Numbered from the stretch's first letter, positions 1,755 through 59,720 are shown. The stretch is DNA of 64,000 nt from an uncultured virus (IMG/VR IMGVR_UViG_3300047564_001460) (IMGVR_UViG_3300047564_001460); one strand, 5' to 3'. Numbers and translations: made by a program. The notes: generated by a model from the sequence alone, not told the origin.

Positions 1755-1783
1755 TTGACTTAGGGGTTAGATTGTGGTATAAT
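1755..1783 (+). promoter_or_regulatory. Strong sigma70 early promoter
   Basis: TTGACT-17 bp-TATAAT with extended -10 TG. Confidence 0.85.
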
Positions 1784-5749: not shown

Positions 5750-5780
5750 AACTGACAAATGTCAGGAAGGAGAAGAATCA

Positions 5781-5936
5781 GTGAAACAAATTAAGACTTG
5801 GAATGAACGGTGTGACGAACACCCAGACCACCAGCAGGGGATGATTAGCGAAGGAATGATTAGAGCGAGGATGCAGGAAGAAATTGACGAACTGCGCCAA
5901 GCACTAGAGGAAAAGCTAAAGGAGAAGAACACATGA
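5781..5936 (+). CDS. Small protein ending LRQAL-EEKLKEKNT (modular family)
   Basis: Palindrome plus AAGGAG RBS, then GTG. Confidence 0.7.
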   Translation: MKQIKTWNERCDEHPDHQQGMISEGMIRARMQEEIDELRQALEEKLKEKNT

Positions 5937-6121
5937 GCAAAGATACAGGCGGCCCAGCGTTTCCGCTGTTTGCGGCAACAGGCCATAGCGGTATGACTTT
6001 GCGTGATTACTTTGCAGCTAAGGCTATGCAAGCAATAGCGCAGAAATACAGCCATGAAGGGGATGTTTCACGCAACGCATACAAAATTGCAGATGCTATG
6101 TTGAAAGCGAGGGAGCAATGA
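5933..6121 (+). CDS. Conserved small phage protein (GGPAFP...GMTLRDYFAAKAMQ family)
   Basis: Characteristic motif of a widespread phage early family. Confidence 0.8.
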   Translation: MSKDTGGPAFPLFAATGHSGMTLRDYFAAKAMQAIAQKYSHEGDVSRNAYKIADAMLKAREQ

Positions 6122-6375
6122 ACAAGGAAAATCCAGTGGCGTGGTTTTCTACATCACCTGACGGAAAATTATCAAACAAATTTGCTTGTAAACCAACGGA
6201 AGGTAATTGGGTTGAACCCCTCTACACCGCACCACCAAAGCGTGAGTGGGTTGGTCTGACTGATGAGGAAAAGAGTGACCTGTGGTGCGAATCAACAGGA
6301 CGAGATTGGGTGAATGAGGACACCCATGTGTTTGCTGACGCCATCGAAGCCAAGCTAAAGGAGAAGAACACATGA
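6118..6375 (+). CDS. Modular-family protein (PVAW...PLYTAPP...WVGLT...AIEAKLKEKNT)
   Basis: Blocks shared with neighbours. Confidence 0.8.
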   Translation: MNKENPVAWFSTSPDGKLSNKFACKPTEGNWVEPLYTAPPKREWVGLTDEEKSDLWCESTGRDWVNEDTHVFADAIEAKLKEKNT

Positions 6376-6785
6376 ACTTCCGTATCAAAGACATCAAACA
6401 AGTAGTCCTTCATGCCCAAGGCGGAAGCGGTGGAACAGGCTATATGACAGGAGCAAAAACAATGAGCAGAGAAGCTATGCAACTGGCGCTTGAGGCGCTG
6501 GAGTTATATCAAAGCAGGATGTGCGTTCAAATGTTTGACGAAGCCATCACCGCCCTGCGCCAAGCACTGGAAGAAAAACGAGAGCCGGTTGGCTACTTCA
6601 GCGTCAACGATTACGGGCGTTGGGAAGAAAACGAAGGTACATATGGTGAACCCCTCTACACCGCACCACCAAAGCAATGGGTTGGGCTGACGGCTTATGA
6701 AATACAAGAGATCTATTCAGGAAATCAGCACTGGGGCAATTTTGCTTGCGCCATCGAAGCCAAGCTAAAGGAGAAGAACACATGA
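6372..6785 (+). CDS. Modular-family protein (second in-frame start at 6462, MSREAM)
   Basis: Shared blocks; AGGAG RBS before 6462. Confidence 0.8.
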   Translation: MNFRIKDIKQVVLHAQGGSGGTGYMTGAKTMSREAMQLALEALELYQSRMCVQMFDEAITALRQALEEKREPVGYFSVNDYGRWEENEGTYGEPLYTAPPKQWVGLTAYEIQEIYSGNQHWGNFACAIEAKLKEKNT

Positions 6786-7192
6786 GCAGAGAAGCTATGA
6801 AGCTGGCGCTTGATATGTTGAACGAGATTGCGGATGACGTGTATTGCGACCAAAAATTAGAAGGAGTCATCACCACCCTGCGCCAAGCACTTGTCGATGA
6901 CGTAAACACATCGCAAGAACGTGTCGATGAAACGACGAAACAAGAACATGAGCCGGTGGCGTGGATAAGCGATAGTCCAACGAAAGGCAACGGTAAGCAA
7001 CTGCACTGGGCTAAAGCAGAAGCGTGGAGATGGTCAAGCAATATCACGCCCCTCTACACCACACCACCAAAGCGTGAATGGGTTGGGCTGACGGATGAGG
7101 AGATTCTTGCTGAAATTCCTATAACCACTATCAGACCTGCAACAACATTTGCAAGAGCAATCGAAGCCAAGCTGAAGGAGAAGAACACATGA
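6782..7192 (+). CDS. Modular-family protein
   Basis: MSREAM...LRQAL...EPVAW...PLYT...AIEAKLKEKNT. Confidence 0.8.
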   Translation: MSREAMKLALDMLNEIADDVYCDQKLEGVITTLRQALVDDVNTSQERVDETTKQEHEPVAWISDSPTKGNGKQLHWAKAEAWRWSSNITPLYTTPPKREWVGLTDEEILAEIPITTIRPATTFARAIEAKLKEKNT

Positions 7193-7422
7193 ATGAAATC
7201 GAATTAGTAATTGTCAAGATGGCGCGGGAAGCGGGGTTTCGTGTTGGCCCGTCCCGAGATGGGCCTGATGATGTGTGGGGCATTGGTGTAAACCTTGAAC
7301 GCTTCGCTGCCCTTGTTGCTGCTACCGAGCGTGAGGCGTGTGCGAAGGTGTGCCTTGAAGAAGCACCAAGTCTTGATGGGCAGTTGTGCGCCGACGCCAT
7401 ACGAGCAAGGGGACAGGCATGA
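7189..7422 (+). CDS. Conserved small phage protein (ERFAALV..EREACA..CADAIRARG family)
   Basis: Recurrent phage motif. Confidence 0.75.
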   Translation: MNEIELVIVKMAREAGFRVGPSRDGPDDVWGIGVNLERFAALVAATEREACAKVCLEEAPSLDGQLCADAIRARGQA

Positions 7423-7727
7423 AGGACTACCTGGCAGGCCAGAGAAGAACAATGGCTGAAAACAAAACAGCAAAGACACCAACGGATGGTGGAACAGGTT
7501 TTATCGACGGTGTGTGGCATGGGCCTACGGCGTGGCAGTGTCAATGCGGCAAACCCTATACGGTCACTTGTATTTCAAGCACACCGTTAAAGCGTGAATG
7601 GGTTGGGCTGACGGATGATGTTGTGTTTGAGCTAGCAGACACAAACCTTTACGAAGGTGGCAAGAATTTTGGTGTGCTGGCGTTTGCTAAAGCGATTGAG
7701 CAAGCCCTAAAGGAGAAGAACACATGA
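7419..7727 (+). CDS. Modular-family protein
   Basis: KREWVGLTD...AIEQALKEKNT. Confidence 0.75.
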   Translation: MKDYLAGQRRTMAENKTAKTPTDGGTGFIDGVWHGPTAWQCQCGKPYTVTCISSTPLKREWVGLTDDVVFELADTNLYEGGKNFGVLAFAKAIEQALKEKNT

Positions 7728-8059
7728 TAAGGATGAATGAGATTCTGTATGCGCGGATGATCAATATGCTTATGGAAGGATGCACAGCGCACGATGTTGC
7801 ATACAGGACAGGTCTACACGTTGTAACAGTGCAGTCCTACCTCCGAGCACTGCATAAAGAGAAAGTCGTTTACGTCATGGGCTGGGTTAAAAACAGCCGA
7901 GGGGCAGACACGACGAAGATTTATAGGTTGGGCAAAGAACAAGACAAACCAAGAGAAGTGCTCACACGAGCAGAGATTGCTGCACGGTACAAATTTAAAC
8001 AACGGCTACGCAAACAGATGCAACGCGAGCGATCAATCATGGAAGGAGCAAGAGTATGA
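7724..8059 (+). CDS. Putative HTH DNA-binding protein
   Basis: CTAHDVAYRTGLHVVTVQSYLRALH, a winged-HTH-like pattern. Confidence 0.6.
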   Translation: MIRMNEILYARMINMLMEGCTAHDVAYRTGLHVVTVQSYLRALHKEKVVYVMGWVKNSRGADTTKIYRLGKEQDKPREVLTRAEIAARYKFKQRLRKQMQRERSIMEGARV

Positions 8060-8090
8060 GCAAGCTGACAAATGTCAGGAAGGAGAGCGA

Positions 8091-8447
8091 ATGAACCCTG
8101 ATACAAAAGAAACGAAAACACAGAAACTAACAGAGGTACAGGAAAAGGTTTTGAGCTACGTGCGTAAACGCAAGAATCCAGTAACCGCCAAGCAAGTGTG
8201 GCTACAAACGAAGGTCGGCAGTAAAGAGGCGCAGGATGCGCTCAGGCATTTGGCATACAAGGGATACATCAAGAGCTTCAAGCGAGTGGAGAATCTAAAG
8301 CAGGATCGGTTCTATTCTTTTCTTACAGATACGCCAGAACCAAAACCCAAAAAGCAAAGGACGAAACCCATCGCTAGCAACTTCTTCAACAACCCATTTG
8401 GTTTGGGAGTGCGAAATGAAAGAGTATCGAGTACAAGTAACGGTTAA
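8091..8447 (+). CDS. Putative winged-helix DNA-binding protein
   Basis: LTEVQEKVLSYV...VTAKQV...ALRHLAYKGYI pattern; palindrome-fused RBS. Confidence 0.6.
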   Translation: MNPDTKETKTQKLTEVQEKVLSYVRKRKNPVTAKQVWLQTKVGSKEAQDALRHLAYKGYIKSFKRVENLKQDRFYSFLTDTPEPKPKKQRTKPIASNFFNNPFGLGVRNERVSSTSNG

Positions 8448-9027
8448 GAACAACCTGCTTCTGAATGCTATAGAAAAGGCAGGGTATAAATCAATCTCAG
8501 ATTTTTGTGAGGGTGCAGGGTTACCAAATAAATCAGAAGTTGGCAATCTAATAAACCTAAAGTCGAGCCCCGTGTTGAAGAACGGGGAGCTTTCTGCGCT
8601 TGCTAAAAAGATACTCGACTTTCTGTGTGCACTGCCCGAAGACTTGTGGACGGAAGAGCAACTGTTCATGAGGTTGGAAACGAATAAGGGTTACATGCAC
8701 CTGGATAAACAACAAATGGATGTGCTGTCGTACGGGGAAAGGCCACAAGATACACCGGAGCTGGAAAACGCAGTCATGCGCAAAGAGCTGCAAGCTAAGG
8801 TACAGGAAGTGATAGGAACCCTGCGACCAATACATCAACTTGTGCTGAAGATGCGTTTTGGTATGAACGACCACCAAGAAGTGCATACGTTAGATGAAAT
8901 CGCAGATAAGTTAAACGTAACAAAAGAACGTGTGCGACAGATTGAACATGCCGCTATGTACAAATTCCGAACACTTTGTATACACGACGAAGCTATTAAA
9001 GAAGTTCTTAGAGATGAGGATTACTGA
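8416..9027 (+). CDS. Protein with a C-terminal sigma70 region-4 HTH (no region 2), N-terminal Cro-like segment
   Basis: VLKMRFG...TLDEIADKLNVTKERVRQIEHAAMYKFR resembles RpoD region 4.2 (TRERIRQIEAKALRKLR). Confidence 0.82.
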   Translation: MKEYRVQVTVKNNLLLNAIEKAGYKSISDFCEGAGLPNKSEVGNLINLKSSPVLKNGELSALAKKILDFLCALPEDLWTEEQLFMRLETNKGYMHLDKQQMDVLSYGERPQDTPELENAVMRKELQAKVQEVIGTLRPIHQLVLKMRFGMNDHQEVHTLDEIADKLNVTKERVRQIEHAAMYKFRTLCIHDEAIKEVLRDEDY

Positions 9028-9066
9028 CCTGACAAAAGTCAGGTAGTCAACTGTACGTGAAAAAAT

Positions 9067-9095
9067 TTGACTTAGGGTTTTATTTGTGGTACAAT
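9067..9095 (+). promoter_or_regulatory. sigma70 early promoter of the AAA+/VWA operon
   Basis: TTGACT-17 bp-TACAAT, TG extension; shares TTTGACTTAGGG with the 1755 promoter. Confidence 0.82.
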
Positions 9096-9185
9096 ATAAG
9101 ATAGTGGTAGATGTATCTGTAGTACCTGAGTCAGGCGGGATTCCTGACAATTGTCAGTCATTAGAGTTCATTAGAGGAGTTTGAA

Positions 9186-10250
9186 ATGTCAGAAGTTTCT
9201 TTCGGTAAGTCCATCACACTCAAGCAAGCAGCTAACCTCATCAAGTCCAACCCAGAGACTAGGTTTCTTTTGCAAGGCGAGCCTGGTATCGGCAAGTCCT
9301 CTCTGCTTGAAAACATCGCCGAGGATCTCGGCTACGACTATGCGTATATCGACGTACCCAATATGGATCTGGGTGACATCGCGATGCCTGTGATCGATCA
9401 CGAAACCAAAACGACGCGCTACTACCCCAACGCTAGATTCAAGGTGCATCAGGGCAAACCTGTCGTCATCATGCTCGACGAGTTTACGAAGGGTGCCGAG
9501 CCGGTCAAGAACATGCTGCACCCTATGCTTGAGAAGGCTAACCCACGCCTGGGTGACATTACCCTGGACAAACGTTCACCTATCTTTCTTACGGGCAACT
9601 TGAGTACTGATGGTGTGGGCGACAACTTGAAAGCACACAGCCGCAATCGTATCGTGCCCGTGACAATCAGCAAGCCGACTGCGGAGGAGTGGATCGAGTG
9701 GGGCTCAAACAAGGGTATCGAAGCCGAGGTGCTGGCCTGGGTGTATCAGTTTCCCCAAGTATTGGCTAGCTATCGCGATGGTAACCAGAGCGAGAACCCC
9801 TACATCTATAACCCCAAGAAGCCGCAAGCTGCGTTCGTTTCGCCACGTTCACTTGAGACTGCTAGCAACATCATACGTAGCAGGAGGTTCCTCGATTCGG
9901 ATACGGTTATCTCTGCGTTGACTGGTGCGATCGGTGAGTCTGGTGCGAGGGACATGCAAGCCTATATTGAGTTCGCCGATCAGCTCCCAACGTGGGAAGC
10001 AACGATCAAAGAGCCCAAGACTGCGCCTGTGCCTACGAGTGCAGGTGCGTGTGCAATTGTCGTGTTCGGTGCAATTGCACGTATCACTAAGGATACTATT
10101 ACCCCATTCATGGAGTACCTGGAGCGGTTTGAGTCTGAGTGGCAAGCCGTGTTCGCTATCAACATCGCTAAGACTCCAAGTAAGCAAGCGATTGCGTTTT
10201 CGTGCAAAGCGTTCGCTAACTGGGTCTCGAAGAACCAAGACTTACTGTAA
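9186..10250 (+). CDS. MoxR-type AAA+ ATPase
   Basis: Walker A GEPGIGKS, Walker B IMLDEF, FLTGN sensor, SPRS. Confidence 0.88.
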   Translation: MSEVSFGKSITLKQAANLIKSNPETRFLLQGEPGIGKSSLLENIAEDLGYDYAYIDVPNMDLGDIAMPVIDHETKTTRYYPNARFKVHQGKPVVIMLDEFTKGAEPVKNMLHPMLEKANPRLGDITLDKRSPIFLTGNLSTDGVGDNLKAHSRNRIVPVTISKPTAEEWIEWGSNKGIEAEVLAWVYQFPQVLASYRDGNQSENPYIYNPKKPQAAFVSPRSLETASNIIRSRRFLDSDTVISALTGAIGESGARDMQAYIEFADQLPTWEATIKEPKTAPVPTSAGACAIVVFGAIARITKDTITPFMEYLERFESEWQAVFAINIAKTPSKQAIAFSCKAFANWVSKNQDLL

Positions 10251-10292
10251 AAAATCTGGCTACTGACAAATGTCAGGAAAGGAGCGCTGAAT

Positions 10293-10577
10293 GTGTATTC
10301 AAAGTTAGAAAGGATGGAGGATCTACCGCTTGAATGGCACGAGGTCAGACGACTAGGTATGCAACTGTACGGTGCGTATACCGTGATGTTCGAGCGGGTG
10401 ATGTTCAACGCAAGCGAGCTGCCGAAGATAAGAGTCAAGCTGTTTCGGACGCGAGCTAGTACAACTACCACACGCGAGTTGATCGCTGTGTTTACCGATG
10501 CTGAAGAAGCCAGAGTAATGCTGAGCCTGCTTCACTCAACGCTGTTAGATGACATGAAACTTTTAGGAGAAAGATGA
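10293..10577 (+). CDS. Hypothetical protein
   Basis: Palindrome-fused AAAGGAG RBS, GTG start. Confidence 0.6.
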   Translation: MYSKLERMEDLPLEWHEVRRLGMQLYGAYTVMFERVMFNASELPKIRVKLFRTRASTTTTRELIAVFTDAEEARVMLSLLHSTLLDDMKLLGER

Positions 10578-10578
10578 G

Positions 10579-11793
10579 ATGGATGAAGAACGTAAACTGA
10601 AGAAGGCAAAGATCTCGCTCATGCGGGATCCCCGCTTTGCCCTGTGGCAAGGCATCATGATGGTCGGTAAGACGGTGGTCTCCGATAACGTACCGACTGC
10701 GGCAACAAACGGTCGAGACGAGATCTATGGTCGCAAGTTCATCAAAGAGCTATCCGACGCTGAGCTTAACTTTGTCGTGCTGCACGAGAGCTTGCACAAA
10801 GCCTATCGGCACCTGACCACATGGAAGAAGCTGCATGACGAGAATCACCGCCTAGCTAACGCTGCTTGTGACTACGTTATTAACTTGAAGCTGAGGGACA
10901 TGGATCCATCAGGCAGGACGTTGGCTTTCCCCAAGTTCAAGACAGGCAAGTTGGCAGGTAAGGAGATGGGCCTGATCGACGAGCGGTTCCGTGGGATGAA
11001 CACCAAGCAAGTCTTCGACATTCTTAAGCAGGAGATGAAGGATGGCGGCGGTGGGGGTGGTGGCGATGACAATTGTCAGGACGGGTTCGACGAGCATGAC
11101 TGGGATAGTGCGAAGGACATGACCGAGGAGGAGAAGCGCGAGCTTAGCCGAGACATTGATCAAGCACTGCGGCAAGGTCAGATGGCGGCGGCAAAAATTG
11201 CCGGTAAGAACGCAGGTGGTATCGATCGTGAGCTTCAGGATCTGCTCGAACCAAAGCTAGATTGGCGTGAGGTGCTACGCGAGTTCGTTAAAGCAACCTG
11301 CTATGCGAAAGATGCGAGTAGCTGGCGCAAAGTAAACAGGAGGTACTTAAGTACAGGGATGTACATGCCGACGCTGATCGGTGAGAAGGTTGGGCACTTG
11401 GTCGTTGCCGTCGATACGTCTGGCTCGATCGGTTCGGCTGAGCTGGCTGACTTTCTTAGCGAGGTTAAGGGTATCGCAGAAGAGGTAAACCCTGACAAGG
11501 TGGACTTGATCTATTGGGACGCTAAGGTCGCTGGGCATGAGGAGTATGGACTAGGAACTGTGGAGTCAATCATTCAATCAACAAAGCCACGCGGTGGTGG
11601 AGGCACTGCGCCTTCGTGCGTATCGCAATACTTAAAGGAGAAAGCAATTGTTCCAGAGTGCATCGTTGTTCTCACGGATGGCTATGTGGGTGGCGACTGG
11701 GGTTCTGATTGGGAGGCTCCGTTGCTATGGGTTATCACGCAAAACAGCACCGTTGTTGCGGATCACGGCAAAACAATTCATATGCCTCACTAA
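10579..11793 (+). CDS. HExxH metallopeptidase-like plus VWA domain protein (DUF2201-like)
   Basis: PTAATNG, LHESLH, ANAACDYVIN, MIDAS DTSGS, GGGT, LTDG. Confidence 0.88.
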   Translation: MDEERKLKKAKISLMRDPRFALWQGIMMVGKTVVSDNVPTAATNGRDEIYGRKFIKELSDAELNFVVLHESLHKAYRHLTTWKKLHDENHRLANAACDYVINLKLRDMDPSGRTLAFPKFKTGKLAGKEMGLIDERFRGMNTKQVFDILKQEMKDGGGGGGGDDNCQDGFDEHDWDSAKDMTEEEKRELSRDIDQALRQGQMAAAKIAGKNAGGIDRELQDLLEPKLDWREVLREFVKATCYAKDASSWRKVNRRYLSTGMYMPTLIGEKVGHLVVAVDTSGSIGSAELADFLSEVKGIAEEVNPDKVDLIYWDAKVAGHEEYGLGTVESIIQSTKPRGGGGTAPSCVSQYLKEKAIVPECIVVLTDGYVGGDWGSDWEAPLLWVITQNSTVVADHGKTIHMPH

Positions 11794-11809
11794 TAAATGG
11801 AGAAGCAAA

Positions 11810-12049
11810 ATGGTCGTAGTTAATTTGGGATACAGCACAAGCATTGTAGTTACCAAAGAGGATGCAATGGCTTTGGTCGGCATCCTTGAACGTTCGTATG
11901 CGTGGGACGAGAAGTATGTGTCTAAGAACGATTCGGAGACAGGGGAGTCGCATTACTTGTACTACGCATACCCCAGTACCAATATGCCGACGATGAAGAT
12001 CGTCAACGATGAAGTCTTTACGATGGCTAAGTTAGCAGGTAAGCCCTGA
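11810..12049 (+). CDS. Hypothetical protein
   Basis: GGAG RBS; stop codon inside a palindrome. Confidence 0.7.
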   Translation: MVVVNLGYSTSIVVTKEDAMALVGILERSYAWDEKYVSKNDSETGESHYLYYAYPSTNMPTMKIVNDEVFTMAKLAGKP

Positions 12050-12103
12050 CAAATGTCAGGAGTTAGAGTTGTTCGTGTCGTTAGTAATCATTAGGAGAAT
12101 CAA

Positions 12104-12967
12104 ATGAGCATTAGTGCATCAGCAGTTCTGGTCGAGCTGAATATCAGCGTATGGCCCGCATCAAAGATCGACAAAGAAGTTACCGAGTTCACCAATAGAA
12201 ATGCATCCGCTGTGGCCGATGCGTCTCAAACCAAGAAGAACCTCTTTGCAGGTACGTCCTTACGCAAAGACATTGAGAAGTTCGCAGCTCGCGTTCGTCT
12301 CTATCACAACCAACACACTCTCCCGTGGGCAGACAAAGGCGAGCGTCTTTTGCCGACCAAGCTGTTCATGGACTACAAGATTAGTATGAATACGTTCGAG
12401 CATACCTTCGACAGTATGTGCAACGAATTCTTTCAGGCGTACCCATCGCTTGTTGCTCAGGCTCCCATGAACCTCGGTACGTTGTTCAAAGCCGAGGACT
12501 ATCCAGACCTGGATGATGTCAAGCTGAAGTTTGGATTCCGTCGGTCGGTCAACCCGCTGCCTGAGTCTGGTGACTTCCGCTTAGATATTCCGTCGGATGA
12601 CTTAGCCGAGATGCGCAGTGAGTATGAAGCCAAGTTCGAGGAGCGGCTCGCCGATGCGATGCGCACCCCGTGGGATCGCTTACACACTATGCTGACGAAT
12701 ATCTCCGAGAAGCTAACTGATACGAAGCGAGAGGAAGAGGAAGGCAAGACCAAGCGTTATCACGACTCTCTGGTTACCAACGCGCTAGACCTGTGCTCCC
12801 TGCTGAGCAAGCTGAACATCACCAACGATCCGAAGTTGGAGGAAGCGCGTCGGCAGTTGGAGATAACGATGGTGGGTACGAACATAGCAGCAATCAAAGA
12901 TGATCCTGCCGAGCGTGTCCAGATCAAGTCGCGTGTCGATGCAATCCTCAACAAGTTTTCCTGGTAG
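12104..12967 (+). CDS. DUF3150-like helical protein (partner of the AAA+/VWA module)
   Basis: AVLVELNISVW...TKKNLF...HTLPW pattern and context. Confidence 0.65.
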   Translation: MSISASAVLVELNISVWPASKIDKEVTEFTNRNASAVADASQTKKNLFAGTSLRKDIEKFAARVRLYHNQHTLPWADKGERLLPTKLFMDYKISMNTFEHTFDSMCNEFFQAYPSLVAQAPMNLGTLFKAEDYPDLDDVKLKFGFRRSVNPLPESGDFRLDIPSDDLAEMRSEYEAKFEERLADAMRTPWDRLHTMLTNISEKLTDTKREEEEGKTKRYHDSLVTNALDLCSLLSKLNITNDPKLEEARRQLEITMVGTNIAAIKDDPAERVQIKSRVDAILNKFSW

Positions 12968-15297: not shown

Positions 15298-15603
15298 TTG
15301 GCTAAAACACCAGAAGCCAAAGTAAAAGATAGCATCAAAAAAATACTAAAAGAAAACGATGTCTATTACGCTATGCCTATAGGTACAGGCTTTGGTAGTT
15401 CAGGAGTCCCAGATTTTCTTTGCTGCGTGCAAGGTAGATTTGTGGGTATCGAAGCAAAGGCAGGGGGCAATCTACCTACTGACCTTCAACTTAAAAACAT
15501 GAACAGCATAAACGCCGCAGGTGGGGTGACAATTGTCATCGATGAAGTTAACGTTAAAGCGTTAAGTGGCTACATAAAACTCATTAAGGAAAACAAGGTA
15601 TGA
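15298..15603 (+). CDS. VRR-NUC domain nuclease (Holliday-junction-resolvase-like)
   Basis: TPEAKVK, GVPDFL, FVGIEAKA, PTDLQ; TTG start after GGAG. Confidence 0.88.
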   Translation: MAKTPEAKVKDSIKKILKENDVYYAMPIGTGFGSSGVPDFLCCVQGRFVGIEAKAGGNLPTDLQLKNMNSINAAGGVTIVIDEVNVKALSGYIKLIKENKV

Positions 15604-17858: not shown

Positions 17859-18029
17859 ATGGATTATGCGGAACACATTCTCAACGCAGAGAAAAATCTA
17901 CGTGACGCATACAATTTGATGCAAGAAGGTAAATCCCTCGAAGCCGCAGTGGCTGCGCTTGAAGCAGTAGCAGACGCAAAGATGGCATACACCGCTATAA
18001 AGTACACCAACCCGAGGGATGCTGCGTAA
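17859..18029 (+). CDS. Small helical hypothetical protein
   Basis: GGAG RBS; coupled to the next gene. Confidence 0.6.
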   Translation: MDYAEHILNAEKNLRDAYNLMQEGKSLEAAVAALEAVADAKMAYTAIKYTNPRDAA

Positions 18030-18694
18030 TGGCACACGTTGCTTGGTCGTACAGTAGCCTGAAGACATTCCAGCAATGTCCGAGGAAGTATTACCACACG
18101 AAGGTAGCTAAAGATTTTCCTGAGCCACAAACTCAGGCGATGCTGTACGGCGAGCAAGTCCACAAAGCTGCTGAAGACTTTATCAAGTCAGGCACACCCA
18201 TACCCGAGAAGTTCGAGTTCATCCGTGAGGTTGTCGAGCAGCTTGCATCCCTGCCTGGGGAGAAGCACTGTGAGCTTCGCTTGGGGTTAACCAAAGACCT
18301 GAAGCCTTGCGGATTCTTTGATAAGAACGTTTGGTGGCGTGGGATTGCCGACTTGGTTATCGTGAACGAAGAGAAAGGGCTCATCCACTCGATAGACTAC
18401 AAGACAGGCAAGAGTGCTCGGTATGCTGACGTACAGCAACTTGATCTTGTAGCAGCGGGTCTGTTCGCTAAGTTTCCGAACATTACAAAAATAAAGTCGG
18501 CACTGCTTTTTGTGGTGAGCAAAGAGTTCGTTAAGGCTACGCACCAAGCGGATATGGTTGAGCAGTACGTAAGCAAACCCGCGCAAGATGTAGCGCGTAT
18601 TGAAGCTGCTTTAGAGAATGGGGTATGGAACCCCGTTGAGAGTGCGCTGTGCAAATTCTGCCCAGTGAAAACATGCGAGTACAACAGGAGCTAA
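18029..18694 (+). CDS. PD-(D/E)XK (RecB/Cas4-like) exonuclease
   Basis: WSYSSL..F.QCPR, GIADL, IDYKTGK, C-terminal CKFCPVKTC. Confidence 0.9.
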   Translation: MAHVAWSYSSLKTFQQCPRKYYHTKVAKDFPEPQTQAMLYGEQVHKAAEDFIKSGTPIPEKFEFIREVVEQLASLPGEKHCELRLGLTKDLKPCGFFDKNVWWRGIADLVIVNEEKGLIHSIDYKTGKSARYADVQQLDLVAAGLFAKFPNITKIKSALLFVVSKEFVKATHQADMVEQYVSKPAQDVARIEAALENGVWNPVESALCKFCPVKTCEYNRS

Positions 18695-21047: not shown

Positions 21048-21932
21048 ATGGGCACAGTAGCATTATTTGGATCAGACCTCCCCGACTTTCTACAGAATGC
21101 AGGGGTTAGCGAGCTAACTAAAAAACTCGCAGGTAAGACAGGCGTAGCACGGATCGTTCCCAAAAACGGAATCTTCCGTAAGGTTGTCGGCGGCGAGGAG
21201 ATGGGCAAAGTCAAAGGCTCGATCAAGACCGTTATCGTCAACGCATCCCCCGATGTTGGGCGCATCTACTACGCAAAGCAGTGGACCCCCGACGCTGAGC
21301 CTACAGCTCCCGATTGCTTCTCGAACGACGGTCGTACACCGGACGAAAAAGCAGCAAACAAACAAGCCGATCGGTGCGACTCATGCCCACAGAATATCAA
21401 AGGCTCAGGCCAAGGTAATTCTAAGGCTTGCCGTTACTCACGTAGGCTGGCGTTGTTATTGGAGGAGGACTTTGGTACTGCACTCGAAGGTCGTGTGTAT
21501 CAGATGAACCTTTCATCCAAGTCGTTGTTCGGTGACAGCTTGAGCAATGGCACACACCCGTTCGAGAACTACAGCAAGTATCTTGCTAATAACGGCGAGA
21601 GTCTTGATTTTGTAGTTACCGAGATCAGCTTTAACGAGGATAACGACAACCAATCCGTGTTGTTCGCTCCCGTGCGTAGGATCGTGAAGCAAGAGTACGA
21701 AGTATCTTCTAAGGCAACAACAAGCCCTGAAGTTAGTCGTATGGTGATCATGACTCCCTACCAAGCGGATATGACGGGGCGTACCAAGCAGATAGCAGCA
21801 CCAAAGAATGATGATGCTGAAGACGCTAACGTTGTCGGTGAGCCGACTGTACGGCAGAAAAAAGCGGAGCCTGTTGTGAAACAGAAAGCCGACTTGAACT
21901 CCGTGCTGAAGGCGTGGACGGACGAGGAGTGA
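21048..21932 (+). CDS. Putative ssDNA-binding/annealing protein
   Basis: PDCFS...CDSCPQN..GSG...KAC motif, acidic aromatic C-terminus WTDEE, replication context. Confidence 0.6.
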   Translation: MGTVALFGSDLPDFLQNAGVSELTKKLAGKTGVARIVPKNGIFRKVVGGEEMGKVKGSIKTVIVNASPDVGRIYYAKQWTPDAEPTAPDCFSNDGRTPDEKAANKQADRCDSCPQNIKGSGQGNSKACRYSRRLALLLEEDFGTALEGRVYQMNLSSKSLFGDSLSNGTHPFENYSKYLANNGESLDFVVTEISFNEDNDNQSVLFAPVRRIVKQEYEVSSKATTSPEVSRMVIMTPYQADMTGRTKQIAAPKNDDAEDANVVGEPTVRQKKAEPVVKQKADLNSVLKAWTDEE

Positions 21933-25242: not shown

Positions 25243-25267
25243 CCCCGCGCAATGCGGGGATTTTTTT
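25243..25267 (+). terminator. Terminator at the convergence of the two arms
   Basis: CCCCGC-GCAAT-GCGGGG followed by A and T7. Confidence 0.75.
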
Positions 25268-28200
25268 ACTTACGTTTTTCAGCCATCTCTTTAGCTCGCT
25301 TTTCGAGCCGCTCGGCTAACTTATCAGCAGCTTCACCCACAAGAGACACATTCTTCTCAGTGAGCGTAACACCAGCAACAGCCCCTTCTCTACGCTCTAA
25401 CTTACCTTCGATCGACTTAACAACCGTATCTTCAGTGATAGCGTAGGACGGGTATTGGCGATTGAACTTGCTTACTTCGTCCTCAATAATTTTATTGAAA
25501 ACTTCATCCCCTTCGTCGGTTCCTTTCTTGTACTGCACGTTCAAGCGCGTCAAGATGAGGTTGCGTTTGTTGAGGATCTTCTGCTCAACACCGTTGAGTT
25601 TGAAGTTGTTGACCTGCGTTACTGCGTTGATGTCTGGGTTGAAACCAAGTGCACGACCGACCAGCTCGCCAACCTTGATGTGTTCTTTTGCAACTAACAA
25701 AGAACCAGCAGACGTTTTAATACCTTCGTCCATCATTTTGTTAGTCATGATCCAGTTGCGAATGGCCGCAGGGGACATACGCTCGAACATCTTTTGATAA
25801 TCGCCCTCAGCGTAGGCTTGGTATGCGTCGGCTAAAGAAAGACCCATACTTGCAGTCGGCCCCATGTTGTCCACCATGAACGCAATCGCCGAGTCCCTAG
25901 CAGTCTTGGTCTCTTTGCTGTCCCTACCCCACATATCATTGAGCTGCGTACGAGAAGCAATATCCCAACCGGTGAGAGCATTGAAAACACCACGATCTAC
26001 GATGTCAGATATAGGCACACTGCCGATAGTCATATCACCCAAGTACTCAGGTATGAGCACGGTACGGAGGTAAGTTTCGAGATCCATCTCCCGCAACTCT
26101 TTGGGCCAGTCGTCATCATCAGACATTTGCCCCCACATCCAGCCAAGCATACCCACAACAGAACTAAAGAAGGCCATTCCAGGCACACCAGCTACTAGCG
26201 CAGACATACTGAGCACGCCGAAGAACTTCTTGACCGCAACCGATCTACCTTCTGCGTCTAGGGGGGCGAGAATGCGCTTGAAGTTAGTGCCGAGCAACAG
26301 CGCCATTTGCAGGGGGTACATCTTGAACTGGAACAGAACCTTGCCCAGACCCTTCTGCATCCACAACGGACGGTTAGCTACATCGTAGTTACCGAGTGCT
26401 TCGTTAACATCCCCAACGGCATGTCGAACTGCTTCTTCGTGCGTAAGCCCACGGTCACGACCCATGCGGTAAGAGGCAAGGTAAACAGCCTCTCGGGTAA
26501 GACGCTCCACATTGTGTAGTAGCCCACCGACAAGAATATTTGCTGCCCTAGCACCTTTACCAGGAATGCTGTCGAATTGGTCAGTCGTTACAGCTTTGTA
26601 CCCAAACACAAGGGATGAGTACGTTGACTGCTCAACTCCAAGCTCAACCATGTCGGCTACCGCACGGCGCTCATCTGGCTTTAATCCTTTTGCATTTGCT
26701 AGGCTTGGGGCTACATAAGAGGTAGTACCGTCTGGATTACTTCTTACTACACCGTACTGATTCACAAGCGTCAGCATCTTGGATACTTCTTTAATCGCTT
26801 TAGCCATATTGTTGTGGTTTGCACCAAGCACAGGTACACCCGAGATCAACAAGCTGAATGGCTGCACGAGGGCAGAAGATATACCCGTCATGTAGTAGAA
26901 GAAAGAAAGTTTGTTTGCCATACCTGCTATGGCATCCGTTAATCCACCTTCTTGCCCCGCTAGTGCAGCGTTGGCCCGACGCTCAGTCTCATCAACAAAC
27001 GGAGAAAGCTCTTCGCGCTCGGCGATCGAATCTTTTGCAGCGGAAAGAGCAACACGGATCTTTGGTGAAAACTCCAAACGAGCAAGCTGAATACCCTGCT
27101 TGGCGGCAACCGACGCTATGTTTTGGGTCAGATCAACACTGAAACCAATCCGACCCTTACGATGAATGAACTGCCTACGGAAGCTCTGCTCCGGCATCGT
27201 GGTTAGATACAGTTGGTAGATCGAATCTTTTAGGGCTTCTCTAGCAGCAATAGCTTGTTCGCGCTGGTCTTCCTCAGTCACACCACTAGATACCGGTGCA
27301 AAATCACCTTCGTCAATTGCCCTAAATATGGCTTGTAGCAACGGAGACGAGTCCAACGAATCCCTACGCAAGTCGCGTATGTTGTTACCCAGCTTGAAGT
27401 TATTTGTATCTATCTGCTCTTCAAGCGGGCTTTTGCTATTCGGGTTCAACTCCGCAGCGAGGATTTCTGCTGCTCGATTACGGGCACCACGAGTCTTGAA
27501 TATGTAGAACTCAGGCTGATCCGAGTACAAACCCTTTTCCACACGTAAGTAGTAGTTGCCGTCTGGGCGCACCAACGGGAAGAAAGGACGGATGCGATTC
27601 TCGGTTTCAAAGGTCTTACGAATCATCGCCATCAGGTTAGTCTTAGTTTCTGGGTTGACCCCCTGAAGGTTTTGAATCTGCTCATCAAGCAGATTGCTGT
27701 AAAGATTGATTATCGATTCGTAGTACTTAAGGATACGTGAGTACAGCTTTTTACCGGTATCACCAAGAGCTTCAAACTTACGATCAAAAAGCGGATTGCG
27801 TGTCGGCAGCTTAGTGTTTGTCGGGTCGTACTCGGCAAGAGTCGTCTCATAGATAAAGTCTTCCAACTTGGGACGCAGTGTCTTATCTGATTTGAACCCA
27901 CGCTTAACTTCATCAATAAGCGTAACGGCACCGCGCATAAACTGCTGAGACGTGCCGAGCATTTCACCAACAAGATCGTTTACTTCCCGCAGTCGAGGAA
28001 CATCCCTCTGCGCCCATTTAGTTAAGAAGTCGAGCGTAGGCATACGTACGAAGGCAGTCTTCGCCGCATCGGACATATTGTCCCAAACTTCTTCGATGTA
28101 TTCGCGGACCGCACCAGGATCTCGGGCAAGCTGCGAGAGCTTCATACCTTCGGCTAACTCAGTCCCACTACGAGACCTGAGCACAACCTGCTCGGCTTTC

Positions 28201-31200
28201 TTCTGTTCGCGCAACATGCGCTTCAGCGATTTCTTTTCTATCTGCTGAGGCTCAGGCCCAAACTGCCTTTGTGAAAAAGCCTTTAACCCTTTCTCTGCTA
28301 TGCGCATTCCAGGAGTCTTAGGCGTTGTAAGCAGTTTGTCAGTGATGTCGATTAGGTTGGAAAGCGCAGTTTGCTTATCCGCACCAAGGCCGAAAGCATC
28401 CAATAAGATTTTTACAAACTGAGAAAACCCGCTTCGTTGCTTTCCAGGTAGCGCAGATAAAAATGCTTGGAAGTCTTGATCAGACATTCCATATGCCAAG
28501 AATTCATTTGAGTCGTTAAATATTTCGTAAGACCCATCTTCAGTTTGGGTGCTTTCTACAACCCTACGTAGTTCTATAGGTAGCTGGCCTTTATCCCTAA
28601 GATAGTAGTAATACATCTCGCTTTGGGCGGCTAACTCATTAAGCTCCCTAATCAGCTTTTGCAGTTTTGAATCTTTGCGCCCACCGATACTTGCTGCCGA
28701 GCCAAGCGCAATCTTTTGTGATGTAGCAGCATGAAGAGCTTCGTGCAGTACAGTTGTATTGTTAACACCTTGATCTTTGCCAAAGCTCTTACCGCGCACA
28801 TAGATTGTTCTGTTCTCAGGGACATATATACCCCGAGCGCGATCCCAAGCCTCTCGATTCTTTTCGAGTACAGGCGGTAGTGCGTCACCTACCTCTATGA
28901 CAACATACTTAACACCATTGAGGAACGGACGAAGCCTTTCGGCTAATGCTTTTTCAAATGCATCGCCTAGCTTCGCTACGAAAGTCATTGCTTGGACGGC
29001 ATTTTTTGCCGTCGATAAACCTTCCTCTGGAGGGCCTACGTTGGATTCAGCTTTAGACGCTAGGACTTCTTTTTTCCTAACCGCTTCACGGTTAGCATCC
29101 TCTTCCTTGATCTTCTTGCGGAAGAAGTCGAGAGCTTGAGGGCTTAGTCCCAACTGCTTTATGGATTCTTTAATCCGTTTACCAACTGCCGTGCCGCGCA
29201 GGTTTGCATTTGCGTCCAGGCGAAGAAGCTGTTTAATAGCCGATTCGCGCAGGTTGCCCCGCTGCTCTTCGATCGCTTCCCGTGACTCACCCTTTGCAGC
29301 AAGCGCAGTGACAAGTGCTTCGTCTTCAATATCTAAAGCCGATGTCTCAAGATCCTTTTGGGCTTTTAAAAGCGCACGGTCAGCTCTAGCCTTTTCAGCC
29401 TGAACAGTTTTCTTTTCCGCTGCTTTCTTCTCAGCTACATCAGGAGAAAGTTTTTTACGCCCGCGACCAGTCTTCTTTCTTATCTCTTCTGAAGAAGGGA
29501 GCTGAGTGATGAGGGGGGGACCGACAAACTCTTCTGTGGCAGGTTCTGCCACTTTTGTTCCTTCAACAGCCTCTGCTGTTCCCTCTTTTTCTGCTTGCTT
29601 GGTTTCGGTGGTTTCAGCGGCACTTAATGTTTCCTTTTTTGGTTTAGTTTTCCCTACGGCAGACTCAACTATAGTCCCCCTACCAAGTGCATAAACATCG
29701 CTGTAGTGGGAATATTTCTTCTCTTTGTCTACTTGGTAAGCTTCTGAGGCCATAGGGCCAATATCAACAACCTGCCTAGCCACAAGAACTTCGCCTGGGG
29801 CAAGGGATCTTGCGCGGCGATCAAACCCTATCTTGTCAAAACTACGAAATCCGTAACGATCTATAGTTACAGGAAACTCAATTAGCTTATCTGCTTTAAC
29901 GTAAATCGGGACAATAGAACCGGGAATATTGTGGTGCTCGTCGGGCATACCATATGTAGCAGCGACATCTGGGCTGTCCGATACAAATACGTTGTAGCCC
30001 TCTCGTGGCTCAGCATTAATTGCGCCCTCTTTGTCGCCTTGTATTCCACGGTATAGAACTAACGGCTCACCATTTTTGTCTGTAATAAACTCATCTGTTT
30101 TTGCTACGGCTTCTTCCGTTAATGCAGCGGGCTGCGCCTCTTCTCCGCGTACAGGTTGCTCAACAGGTTCTCCAGGAGGTACCACTCCACTTGGTTCAGC
30201 TTCTTCAGTTCGTCCGGTACCAAGAGTTCGTTCTGGTCGGCCAGATACTTGAATGCTTTCTCCAACTGCTGGGATGACAGGTCCTTTAACACTTTGCTCT
30301 CCTTCAGCACTAGCTTCTTCTTTGGCTTGCCTCCAAGCAACTGCCATAGCTTGGTCTGACGGCATACCGCCCATCATTAATTCTTGCGCAATTTCATCGG
30401 CACGGTTAGTAACAGGCCCTGTAGCTATTTCAGAAGCCGTTTCAACAATCGAATCATCCACTTCTCGGGTGGCAACCGCAATAGCACGAGACTTAGTAAA
30501 CCCAGAGAGTGCTACTAATTCTTCCGCACGAGCATTAATCATCTCCTGCCGATCGGCTTGGGCTAGTGTTTTTGGTTCAACCTTTTGCTCTTCCGTACCA
30601 ATAGCGGGTTCAACTTTTTCCGCAGCTAAATCAGCGGTTGGGATTGTCGGCTCACCTTTAGGTTTAGCTTGTTGTTCTTCAGCTTCCCGCCTTTTCAATT
30701 CAGCCGATGCTTCAAGTATTTCTTTTGCGGTAAGAGGCTCATCAACAGGCTTACCACGTAGTTCTCTAGATTTTCTAACAGCAGCAGATAAACCTTTGGC
30801 CCCACCTGCCATTAGTCCACCCTGAGTAATAGTCTGCAATACGGTGTCTTGCAATTGATTAAGCAAGTCCATAGCAGTCGTGTCTTTACCCAGGCCAGAA
30901 GCCATGTCAGTAAACGCTTGCCCAAGTGTAGTAAGTGATTCTCCAGGTATCTCTCTTACGATAGCTTTACCAAAGTACTCCGTCAGTTTTTCTGTAGGAA
31001 CGCCTTTTGCAGCAGCTTTAATACCTTGGATAGTGGCCGATAACCCACCAATACGTTCACCAAGAATTTCAAATGCAGCGAAAGCGCCAGCTCTAGCGGT
31101 AGCTTCGTTAGCTTCTAACCCAGCGTCTCTACCTGCTGCGTATTCTTGCCCAAAAGATTGAAGCCCCATGTAAACAAGTGGCGCGGCCATACCACCGGAC

Positions 31201-32078
31201 AAAACACCCGCAACCAATCCAGGTGACTGCTGGATAATTGAATTTATTGCACCTTCTAGGATTTGAGCAGGTCTACCTTTAGCCTTACCCATACCTTCTT
31301 GAAACTGCCTAGCATTCTTTGCTGCATCAGAATAAAACTCAGCCGCACGGTCATCCCCTACTAACTCGGTAGAAAACCTAGCAAGACCAGAAAATCCTTG
31401 TTTAATTCCTTGTTTAGCTAGTTCAGTAGCTCTACCAAGAGTTCCTTCTTTACCAGCTTCTTGCGCAGCAATGACTCTTTCTGGTGTTTCTTGTGCTTCT
31501 GCTAATGGCTGAGGTATTTCACCAATACGGGCAGCACGTTGTGCTTCCATTTCAGCTATCTCAGGTCTCAACCCTCGGGCTTGTAGAGCGGCACTTCGTT
31601 GTTCTCTTGTAGTACCAAGAGCGGCAACTTGTTTAGACTTAGTACGATCAAGTTGTTTTTGTTGTTCGTCGATTGTTCGAGCAACTGAACCGACCCAATC
31701 ATCTCGGCTCATCATAGCAACGCGTTTTTCAGGTGTAGCAGCGTCATACGCATTTCGTATAGCTGCAAACATTTCTTCCGTTACGGGAGCGCCGCGCCGT
31801 TCTATTCTTGGTTGAACAGGCGGCTTAAAATCCTTCATTACGGACTTAGTGGTTGTTTTGCCTTCCTCAAACACAGGAGCTTCACCTAACCCCTCTAATT
31901 CAGAAAGGCTGCGAAGTTCTGGTTTAGCTTTTTCTTCTGTTATTGGAGCTGCTGGTTTTTCCGCAGGGGCTACTGCCGCACCACCAAACTGTTTAGCAAG
32001 GGCGGCGAAGTCTGTAGGTGGAGGAGATGCGGCAGAACCTCCAAACTGTTTGGCAAGGGCAGCGTAGTCCGTTGCCAT
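25266..32078 (-). CDS. 2270-aa polyvalent ejection/internal virion protein (ART-like, zincin HExxH, PLxRFG-like regions)
   Basis: DKNGEPLVLYRG...VFVSDSPDVAATY; LHEALH; PFFPLVR; last gene of the virion operon. Confidence 0.8.
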   Translation of the reverse strand: MATDYAALAKQFGGSAASPPPTDFAALAKQFGGAAVAPAEKPAAPITEEKAKPELRSLSELEGLGEAPVFEEGKTTTKSVMKDFKPPVQPRIERRGAPVTEEMFAAIRNAYDAATPEKRVAMMSRDDWVGSVARTIDEQQKQLDRTKSKQVAALGTTREQRSAALQARGLRPEIAEMEAQRAARIGEIPQPLAEAQETPERVIAAQEAGKEGTLGRATELAKQGIKQGFSGLARFSTELVGDDRAAEFYSDAAKNARQFQEGMGKAKGRPAQILEGAINSIIQQSPGLVAGVLSGGMAAPLVYMGLQSFGQEYAAGRDAGLEANEATARAGAFAAFEILGERIGGLSATIQGIKAAAKGVPTEKLTEYFGKAIVREIPGESLTTLGQAFTDMASGLGKDTTAMDLLNQLQDTVLQTITQGGLMAGGAKGLSAAVRKSRELRGKPVDEPLTAKEILEASAELKRREAEEQQAKPKGEPTIPTADLAAEKVEPAIGTEEQKVEPKTLAQADRQEMINARAEELVALSGFTKSRAIAVATREVDDSIVETASEIATGPVTNRADEIAQELMMGGMPSDQAMAVAWRQAKEEASAEGEQSVKGPVIPAVGESIQVSGRPERTLGTGRTEEAEPSGVVPPGEPVEQPVRGEEAQPAALTEEAVAKTDEFITDKNGEPLVLYRGIQGDKEGAINAEPREGYNVFVSDSPDVAATYGMPDEHHNIPGSIVPIYVKADKLIEFPVTIDRYGFRSFDKIGFDRRARSLAPGEVLVARQVVDIGPMASEAYQVDKEKKYSHYSDVYALGRGTIVESAVGKTKPKKETLSAAETTETKQAEKEGTAEAVEGTKVAEPATEEFVGPPLITQLPSSEEIRKKTGRGRKKLSPDVAEKKAAEKKTVQAEKARADRALLKAQKDLETSALDIEDEALVTALAAKGESREAIEEQRGNLRESAIKQLLRLDANANLRGTAVGKRIKESIKQLGLSPQALDFFRKKIKEEDANREAVRKKEVLASKAESNVGPPEEGLSTAKNAVQAMTFVAKLGDAFEKALAERLRPFLNGVKYVVIEVGDALPPVLEKNREAWDRARGIYVPENRTIYVRGKSFGKDQGVNNTTVLHEALHAATSQKIALGSAASIGGRKDSKLQKLIRELNELAAQSEMYYYYLRDKGQLPIELRRVVESTQTEDGSYEIFNDSNEFLAYGMSDQDFQAFLSALPGKQRSGFSQFVKILLDAFGLGADKQTALSNLIDITDKLLTTPKTPGMRIAEKGLKAFSQRQFGPEPQQIEKKSLKRMLREQKKAEQVVLRSRSGTELAEGMKLSQLARDPGAVREYIEEVWDNMSDAAKTAFVRMPTLDFLTKWAQRDVPRLREVNDLVGEMLGTSQQFMRGAVTLIDEVKRGFKSDKTLRPKLEDFIYETTLAEYDPTNTKLPTRNPLFDRKFEALGDTGKKLYSRILKYYESIINLYSNLLDEQIQNLQGVNPETKTNLMAMIRKTFETENRIRPFFPLVRPDGNYYLRVEKGLYSDQPEFYIFKTRGARNRAAEILAAELNPNSKSPLEEQIDTNNFKLGNNIRDLRRDSLDSSPLLQAIFRAIDEGDFAPVSSGVTEEDQREQAIAAREALKDSIYQLYLTTMPEQSFRRQFIHRKGRIGFSVDLTQNIASVAAKQGIQLARLEFSPKIRVALSAAKDSIAEREELSPFVDETERRANAALAGQEGGLTDAIAGMANKLSFFYYMTGISSALVQPFSLLISGVPVLGANHNNMAKAIKEVSKMLTLVNQYGVVRSNPDGTTSYVAPSLANAKGLKPDERRAVADMVELGVEQSTYSSLVFGYKAVTTDQFDSIPGKGARAANILVGGLLHNVERLTREAVYLASYRMGRDRGLTHEEAVRHAVGDVNEALGNYDVANRPLWMQKGLGKVLFQFKMYPLQMALLLGTNFKRILAPLDAEGRSVAVKKFFGVLSMSALVAGVPGMAFFSSVVGMLGWMWGQMSDDDDWPKELREMDLETYLRTVLIPEYLGDMTIGSVPISDIVDRGVFNALTGWDIASRTQLNDMWGRDSKETKTARDSAIAFMVDNMGPTASMGLSLADAYQAYAEGDYQKMFERMSPAAIRNWIMTNKMMDEGIKTSAGSLLVAKEHIKVGELVGRALGFNPDINAVTQVNNFKLNGVEQKILNKRNLILTRLNVQYKKGTDEGDEVFNKIIEDEVSKFNRQYPSYAITEDTVVKSIEGKLERREGAVAGVTLTEKNVSLVGEAADKLAERLEKRAKEMAEKRK

Positions 32079-59122: not shown

Positions 59123-59530
59123 TTACGCAGCGCGGGTAATACCACGCGGATCTTCTACAACCGCCTCAACGCTATCGTCGTTGATAATGCGGAACTCCCG
59201 ACCGTGAATCTTTAGTCGCGTACCACTGTTGGGGCGAACAATTACAAAGTCCCCTTCCTTACAAGACGGTCCGCTAGGAAATCTTGTTGGGTCTTTATAA
59301 GCATCCGGTCCAATCTTTACGACAAACAACACGGGAGTAAGAACTTCCTCGTAATACATGGTTTTGTCGGACTTAATAATCCCAATTTCACTCTCCGCAT
59401 ACTCTTCCATCGCCTCGGGGACGACACAAAGTAAATGGTAAGTTCTTGGGTCAGGCAACTGCTTCGCTTTTTGTTCGGCTGATTTATTTAGCAAGCCGGA
59501 CAGATCGACCGCAGTGGTTAAGTCAGTCAT
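59123..59530 (-). CDS. GroES-like co-chaperonin
   Basis: GII, VVKIGPDAY, EGDFV, RIINDD.V.AVV. Confidence 0.8.
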   Translation of the reverse strand: MTDLTTAVDLSGLLNKSAEQKAKQLPDPRTYHLLCVVPEAMEEYAESEIGIIKSDKTMYYEEVLTPVLFVVKIGPDAYKDPTRFPSGPSCKEGDFVIVRPNSGTRLKIHGREFRIINDDSVEAVVEDPRGITRAA

Positions 59531-59720
59531 CAGATTTCTCCAAATGTTGCACGAGGTCATTGATAATGGATTCTGCTTGGTCTAGACCCCGGATAGTCCC
59601 GCAGATAAAACGGTAGGCTGCATAATCATCAGCTCTACCGGTCTGTAAAAATGCAGACTGCTCCTTGCGGAGCTTGTCGATCTCCCTCGCAACGTGAGCG
59701 AGGACTTTTATTTCATTCAA
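59523..59720 (-). CDS. Small conserved protein between portal and GroES
   Basis: DYAAYRFICGTIRGL motif. Confidence 0.7.
   Translation of the reverse strand: MNEIKVLAHVAREIDKLRKEQSAFLQTGRADDYAAYRFICGTIRGLDQAESIINDLVQHLEKSDD

Follow-up and report, generated by a model that had tools for sequence, protein, structure and literature searches.

The question raised by this locus was how five small ORFs, clustered between positions 5781 and 7727 of a 64,000-nucleotide viral sequence (the whole of which is referred to here as the window), came to be built from the same short blocks of DNA with unrelated in-frame segments between them. The original prediction had described ordered blocks, A to E, reused by all five ORFs, and this was confirmed in every point checked. 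Overall, we consider it probable that linker-type homologous recombination inside genes shuffles three mini-domains, the five ORFs belonging to a family of small early proteins that is very large and occurs in freshwater tailed phages. All of the sequences used were metagenome assemblies. The genes of the region were as follows.

5781-5936, plus strand: ORF1, 51 aa; a variable N-terminal part, then block B running straight into block E
5933-6121, plus strand: interspersed 62-aa gene with an RDYFAAKAMQ module, its start supplied by the block E that ends ORF1; matches phrog_2201 (E = 3e-19)
6118-6375, plus strand: ORF2, 85 aa; C-insert-d-D-insert-E
6372-6785, plus strand: ORF3, 137 aa; an extra 30-aa N-terminal piece, then A (6462)-B-C-d-D-E
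6782-7192, plus strand: ORF4, 136 aa; A-B-(linker)-C-d-D-E, the full architecture
7189-7422, plus strand: interspersed gene of 77 aa; belongs to a second family of shuffled modules (ERFAALV...EREACAK...AIRARG)
7419-7727, plus strand: ORF5; inner ATG at 7452 (MAENKTAKTP module), a short GGTG repeat, then D-insert-E
7441-7459, plus strand: degenerate sixth copy of block E (EKNNG-stop type), containing the ATG at 7452
7724-8059, plus strand: HTH-like gene downstream of the array, started by the last block E; weak HTH-type matches only

The subset of blocks predicted for each ORF, and the insert lengths of about 13 to 28 aa, agreed with a re-reading of the ORFs. The extra N-terminal piece of ORF3 continued in frame into a gene that has an RBS and a start codon of its own (6449-6464, with the ATG at 6462), and an additional short repeat, coding for GGTG, was present at 6429 and 7488. 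Each block lay where it had been predicted.

6462-6493, plus strand (second copy 6782-6813): block A, start codon and first predicted helix
6552-6568, plus strand (others 5889-5905 and 6875-6891): block B, second predicted helix of the N-terminal hairpin
6950-6964, plus strand (others 6130-6144 and 6582-6596): block C, first predicted strand of the beta module
7049-7101, plus strand (others 6217-6269 and 6651-6700, partial 7596-7621): block D, PLYT.PP followed by W.GLTDEE; the main intragenic joint
7157-7192, plus strand (other copies ending at 5936, 6375, 6785, and 7727): block E, predicted C-terminal helix, with RBS AAGGAG and overlapping ATGA

The first half of block D (PLYT.PP) began at 6217, 6651, and 7049 and the second half (W.GLT) at 6244, 6675, 7076, and 7596. 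Block E (AAGGAGAAGAACACATGA) was present in five exact copies, and no further copy was detected in the 64 kb when up to three mismatches were allowed; shuffled sequences contained a mean of 0.04 copies, and none of 100 shuffles reached five. The proposal that block E acts as a universal junction carrying an RBS and overlapping start was borne out in other phages, with the start codon overlapping or lying just inside the end of E in 97 of 109 units (a four-base stop/start overlap in 73 and an ATG just inside in 24 more). This arrangement suggests translational coupling at block E.

Synonymous positions in the blocks were conserved well beyond codon bias. In block D (197 units), an excess was detected for GGG (84%, compared to 19% expected), CTG (84% and 21%), ACG (69% and 24%), and GAT (96% and 44%), and in block E for GCC (89% and 25%; 109 units not selected by DNA). 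A set of 23 AAA-anchored units agreed, and a few positions had no excess. The synonymous sites were thus far from saturated, counter to what would be seen if the ORFs were ordinary diverged paralogues with blocks kept for protein structure and RBS only and with inserts that were fast-evolving loops inherited with the gene. Conservation down to the codon in an intragenic block that supplies no RBS would favor another alternative, a dedicated, evolved diversity system in which the blocks were selected as recombination sites and a cassette array was reshuffled during infection to vary binding loops against host defences. We regard such a system as unlikely, and the DNA conservation may simply have followed from shared descent and repeated exchange rather than from selection for recombining.

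Reassortment of the variable segments by recombination at the blocks, as originally predicted, was supported by homologues in other phages. Segments of the window reappeared at 87 to 100% identity with sharp ends in the blocks. The C-to-D segment of ORF3 (6582-6691) was 100% identical over 110 nt in locus L160, while the D-to-E segment of the same ORF (6667-6787) was 98% identical in L186; 6331-6445 was matched at 89% in L159 and 6768-6893 at 94% in L142. Segments of ORF4 were found in a different gene each time (6782-6891 at 92 to 97% in L130, L132, L142, and L296; 6876-6966 at 95% in L142). For ORF5, 7442-7613 was matched at 91% in L156 and also in L123 and L292, with other D-E inserts in those loci and with all three matches starting within the degenerate sixth E copy, and 7595-7720 was matched at 97% in L134. 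The variable part of ORF1 was also present in L297 (93.6% over 125 nt) and L162, there within other gene contexts. A single gene of L134 joined the N-terminal half of ORF4 (87%) to the C-terminal half of ORF5 (97%), a combination that argues against inheritance as paralogues. Recent exchanges included one stretch of 110 nt at 100% identity and another of 117 nt at 99%, a point on the side of a dedicated system.

The interspersed genes behaved similarly. A segment of the 77-aa gene (7294-7412) was 95% identical in L135, where it lay behind another N-terminus, and the RDYFAAKAMQ module was joined to other N-termini in L132 and L162. Other module families (ERFAALV/EREACAK/AIRARG, RDYFAAKAMQ, HTPGPW, and MSENKNAKTP) were shuffled likewise and interleaved with the A-E family, as seen at 7189-7422 and 5933-6121 of the window and in L135, L160, L162, and L292 to L294.

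Breakpoints lay in the blocks. Match ends fell within 6 nt of a block in 34 of 38 cases, compared to 53% expected, and the associated P value (2e-6) is optimistic because the list of blocks was made after the matches had been seen and the loci had been fetched through the blocks. Among pairs of D-E inserts with at least 85% identity, which are not independent of one another, 66 of 70 had unrelated DNA upstream of D (18 of 20 by cluster), whereas for ordinary small genes of these loci, compared at ends matched for position, the upstream DNA was unrelated in only 25 of 456 pairs and 8 of 99 clusters. The next gene differed in 62 of 65 insert-sharing pairs and in 142 of 454 control pairs. Same-genome pairs were removed from the D-E count, and the same rule was applied to test and control. 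Inserts were therefore not co-inherited in the manner of ordinary paralogues.

The last slot of the array also varied among contigs with the same downstream gene. Copies of gene 7724 with 95 to 98% identity were found in four metagenome contigs (L292 to L295; 4 of 13 loci), and homology was lost at or inside the E gene that precedes it. In this slot, L292 kept the N-terminal half of ORF5 but with the insert found in ORF3 of the window, L293 and L294 had a third insert in common behind different N-terminal halves, and L295 had a fourth insert. Such different inserts in one slot add to the evidence against diverged paralogues, which we consider scarcely credible even though the blocks coincide with predicted helices and strands and some insert clusters were clearly interrelated through ordinary divergence. 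The insert pool was very large, with 183 clusters among 218 units, of which 163 were singletons; a pool of this size would suit a dedicated system.

Reading frame was kept at the joints. All 217 D-E joins found at the DNA level were in frame and without a stop, as were all 74 in loci picked by DNA pattern only. The inserts had a pN/pS of 0.22 (44 pairs) compared to 0.17 for the control and were thus under purifying, not diversifying, point change. These results indicated that the inserts are working protein and that their diversity comes from swapping rather than from hypermutation, and the purifying pattern speaks against a dedicated diversity system.

Another possible source of the mosaic was assembly, with different phages having been joined by assemblers through shared blocks. 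The blocks were common to many phages of one sample, summed depth in one run was up to about 3,500 in the array compared to 6 to 20 in the flanks, and k = 31 unitigs broke at the blocks. Exact identity between unrelated block copies was short, however (median of 10 and 12 nt, 95th percentile of 23 to 24 nt, and maximum of 41 to 46 nt), a point against assembly chimeras because such lengths fall below those of usual reads and final k-mers. In runs from three studies, several junctions of the window were spanned by sequence that showed no differences, although no single record spans the array. Joints with short sides, which are probably from other phages, were not counted. Moreover, chimeras would not keep the frame in every join nor give 87 to 98% instead of 100% identity. 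An assembly artefact was hence judged highly improbable.

The positions of the crossovers pointed to homologous rather than site-specific recombination. Across approximately 30 nt of block D, linkage to the upstream segment fell while linkage to the insert rose, and the same was seen across approximately 20 nt of block E. The first mismatch in insert-sharing pairs lay between -13 and +23 around the W codon (49 pairs), positions that are blurred by later mutation. Crossovers were thus spread over 20 to 35 nt rather than occurring at one fixed position, contrary to the expectation for a dedicated system. Homologous recombination would, at a median identity of 10 to 12 nt, be near the lower end of its range.

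No RT was detected by Pfam among 56 ORFs or in 15 further ORFs, no RT-type motif was present in the six frames of the window, and five short virus records, only 14 to 34% complete, gave no RT match. One H.LRH-like motif was noted on the minus strand, at an unrelated place in the window, in a six-frame motif search. No integrase, tyrosine or serine recombinase, or known annealing protein was found among the window ORFs (Pfam and PHROGs). Together with the gradual change in linkage, these absences fit homology-driven exchange at short linkers. The recombinase search identified 18029-18694 as a PD-(D/E)XK exonuclease and gave no name to the product of 21048-21932; as a putative exonuclease/single-strand-binding pair the two are candidates for carrying out the exchange, with host enzymes as the other candidates, and the choice of enzyme is a guess. 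The array had been proposed to be an RT-independent diversity generator, and the lack of a detected RT is in keeping with the first part of this proposal. A dedicated, programmed generator was unsupported, with no recombinase detected, spread crossovers, and a varying place in the genome; copy number varied too (0 to 3 in relatives), many relatives had no copy in the DNA examined, and long unitigs of the window's own population contained no other letters. The exchange seen was between phages, which also counts against a dedicated generator.

In phages, diversity-generating retroelements vary segments of a protein whose scaffold stays constant, by means of an RT, a template/variable repeat pair, and adenine-specific mutation. 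The array has neither an RT nor such a repeat pair, and the segments replaced are nonalignable and of different lengths. It also differs from an integron or shufflon, as no tyrosine or serine recombinase was found nearby and there was no single fixed crossover position.

Protein models were consistent with a modular architecture. AlphaFold2 predicted for ORF4 a helical hairpin (A and B), a small beta module (C and d), and a helix pair (D and E), with a pLDDT of 81; the low pTM of 0.36 despite this value suggested beads on a string, that is, three separate modules. The predicted stem-plus-variable-loop architecture, like the early operon position, could also be accommodated by a dedicated system. 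A homodimer prediction for the C-E part scored 0.27 and was given no weight in either direction. In a viral structure search, the 10 best matches were uncharacterised proteins of uncultured phages, and a search of solved structures with the C-E model gave a best Z of only 2.6. A fold match of the full model to apo-CmTad1 (Z of 7.3 over 48 residues) was tied with unrelated proteins and was rejected as reflecting generic helical hairpins. For the binder or anti-defence role originally proposed, neither PADLOC nor Pfam nor solved structures supplied a match. The ESM Atlas returned hypothetical clusters only, including a DUF551 cluster at a TM of 0.32. In L142 (2066-2368), an A-B module was joined to a sequence that resembled an excisionase-type HTH by eye, with no Pfam match at E <= 1e-4. 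It is about an even guess that these proteins are non-essential modules for early interaction with the host, with specificity provided by their variable parts.

Under the favored explanation, each protein would consist of at most three mini-domains, independent of one another and joined in series: the hairpin A-insert-B, the beta module C-insert-d, and the helix pair D-insert-E. As the stems of these mini-domains are conserved also as DNA, they would serve as in-frame linkers of 20 to 45 nt. Recombination between co-infecting phages, and between copies, would swap inserts, mini-domains, and neighbouring genes while keeping the frame, and block E would provide an RBS and a coupled start for each incoming gene.

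The array was compared with known modular systems. In the PeSL cassettes of T4-type phages, according to the part of the report available (Arbiol et al. 2010, PMC2839356), short repeats among non-essential small early genes are crossover points, the repeat gives the next gene a Shine-Dalgarno sequence and start codon, and intergenic promoter/stem-loop cassettes move whole genes. The array resembles PeSLs so described, and Botstein/Campbell linker exchange, in having conserved short repeats as crossover points among small early genes and, at block E only, a repeat that ends in the Shine-Dalgarno sequence and start of the next gene. It differs from PeSLs in that the linkers are protein coding, are intragenic (A to D), and shuffle 40- to 170-nt gene pieces in frame. 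No promoter-like site of the PeSL sigma-70 kind was found in 5781-7727, and as for stem-loop terminators there was one weak hairpin inside an insert, the hairpin count being at chance level. The general model of linker-mediated exchange describes the array well, with boundaries falling in short conserved sequences shared by unrelated neighbours.

A link to the lambdoid early mosaic protein EaA of P22, a member of phrog_60 (E = 7e-48), was suggested by weak phrog_60 matches in 11 of 37 family members (best, 2e-5), with the window ORFs at E = 0.02 to 0.05. The B-C-d part aligned to EaA 25-76, including PLYAAPP, with an hhalign probability of 19%, and may be weakly related to it. Patchwork was evident in eaA as well: 18 of 590 matching phage records covered 80% of the gene and, among the 60 matches listed, 2 ended at nt 233 and 8 began at nt 210 to 258, at or just behind the PLYAAPP motif. 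The proximity of these ends to this motif is suggestive only, and the starts also coincide with a domain start. Unlike EaA, the array has many paralogues per genome, and no EaA counterpart was found for the D-E module or block A. A Pfam scan of the 148 longest of 240 block-bearing genes collected yielded no domain of any kind at E <= 1e-4, including the dATP/dGTP pyrophosphohydrolase and DUF551 domains (PF04448 [DUF551], PF04447, and PF13935 all absent), whereas the EaA control had the first two of these three.

In the early genes for Ea22 and EaD, the C-terminal parts have been swapped, and the proteins end in a constant tripeptide whose significance is left unexplained in the portion of the source available (PMC7093339). 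The array shares with the genes so described swapped parts and a constant C-terminus, here KEKNT. By analogy with block E, the basic-Gly-Glu tripeptide of Ea22/EaD (P22 eaD; L290, 6907-7500) may encode the RBS of the next gene. The array ORFs and their relatives differ in having no PF13935 match (P22 EaD control, E = 5e-20); the hhalign probability of an array protein with P22 EaD was 0.9%, and a Foldseek match to an Ead/Ea22-like protein had E = 0.011.

Relaxed homologous recombination by Rad52-like phage recombinases, as far as the accessible part of one report goes (De Paepe et al. 2014, PMC3945230), exchanges small gene fragments with traces of flanking homology; there, pieces of approximately 100 bp are exchanged inside genes, and the flanking homology is incidental and present in about a third of mosaics. 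The short identity between unrelated block copies calls for a tolerant route such as this one. In contrast to those mosaics, nearly all exchanged pieces of the array are bordered by a small, recurring set of blocks, and no such recombinase was found in the genome. Mosaicism within genes has been noted for lambdoid early genes (PMC2629481; PMC7093339) and at the domain level for phage proteins generally (PMC10684548), to judge from the portions of these sources available. The array is not a PeSL, diversity-generating retroelement, integron, or shufflon. Linker-mediated modular shuffling was already known; the new element is its sub-gene form, intragenic and with coding linkers, which is real and well supported.

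The family was large and widespread. The E motif alone was found in at least 128 exact stretches in viral contigs, a search with ORF4 gave 533 relatives among 604 candidates, and a profile of the C-E part gave 30,033 representatives at 50% identity. The best 120 of 7,867 protein matches were unnamed or "hypothetical". Attempts to name the five ORFs through Pfam, PHROGs, and PADLOC gave no usable match; Pfam detected no domain in them, and none of 37 family members matched in PADLOC. No description of the family was found in a literature search whose coverage largely left out subscription journals and supplements. Of 80 AAA-anchored loci, about 25 contained the motif of block D or block E, two of them probably spuriously; each had one to three of the genes, placed immediately before AAA in 2 loci and otherwise 5 to 11 kb downstream of it. 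These loci are of unequal length, so a miss does not equal absence. The five-copy cluster of the window is the dense end of this range, and its place in the genome is not fixed. No relatives of flanking genes 8416 and 5417 were found in viral contigs. Twenty runs containing part of the stretch were labelled freshwater, lake, aquatic, or drinking-water metagenomes, and of 28 loci detected in genome contigs 13 were labelled betaproteobacterial (by our own classification, and possibly misbinned phage DNA), a weak hint of a betaproteobacterial host.

Most demonstrations of the linker hypothesis of phage mosaicism have so far concerned repeats that lie between genes and carry entire genes along. 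In this family the linkers belong to the coding sequence, keep the frame, and occur in very many phages, so that new proteins are built from parts of 13 to 55 codons. This helps to explain the abundance of small orphan genes in freshwater viromes, with so many clusters arising from one scaffold, and it provides both a defined substrate for measuring recombination at homologies of 20 to 45 nt and a large, naturally occurring collection of such early proteins for host-interaction screening. A further reading, which we hold to be doubtful, is that the blocks are selected recombination platforms and that freshwater phages have in common a combinatorial library of small putative binding proteins, drawn from a shared pool of many hundreds of in-frame inserts on three mini-domain scaffolds. 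If so, early host-takeover or counter-defence functions would be retargeted in an enzyme-light parallel to antibody gene shuffling.

The window, to which Rfam gave no match, looks like most of an approximately 64-kb freshwater tailed phage genome, as judged against G001 (30 kb called 47% complete). G001 was 97% identical to the window in a match starting at 15578 and hence does not cover the array. Terminase, portal, capsid, and lysozyme genes were on the minus strand, and genes for DNA polymerase A, the PD-(D/E)XK exonuclease, an SNF2 helicase, and an AAA/VWA pair were on the plus strand. Two candidate control elements lay upstream of the array.

1755-1783, plus strand: sigma-70-type promoter-like site, from an 11/12 consensus match only, upstream of the co-oriented run of small genes that includes the array
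5752-5773, plus strand: palindrome CTGACAAATGTCAG and RBS, immediately preceding the array; the copy after it lies at 8065

The palindrome (CTGACA-NN-TGTCAG) was present in 21 copies between 19 and 17035 (e.g., 5752, 8065, 9144, and 10263), all within the first 17 kb and in many cases immediately ahead of an RBS with its start codon; no such number was reached in 100 shuffles. It is likely to be the operator of a phage regulator and is possibly a second, intergenic junction repeat. Two sigma-70-type promoter regions, at 1748-1786 before the run of small genes and at 9060-9098 before the AAA gene, were 85% identical. Directly after the array region, 8416-9027 encoded a protein with a sigma-70 region 4 domain, and an AAA ATPase, a DUF2201 metallopeptidase/VWA protein, and a 287-aa protein without a name (9186-12967) formed a trio conserved in these phages. 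On the minus strand, a 2,270-aa protein (25266-32078) had weak, below-cut-off matches to the polyvalent-protein domains LPD39 and ART-PolyVal, and a GroES-like (Cpn10) gene with a weak Pfam match (59123-59560) adjoined the portal gene.
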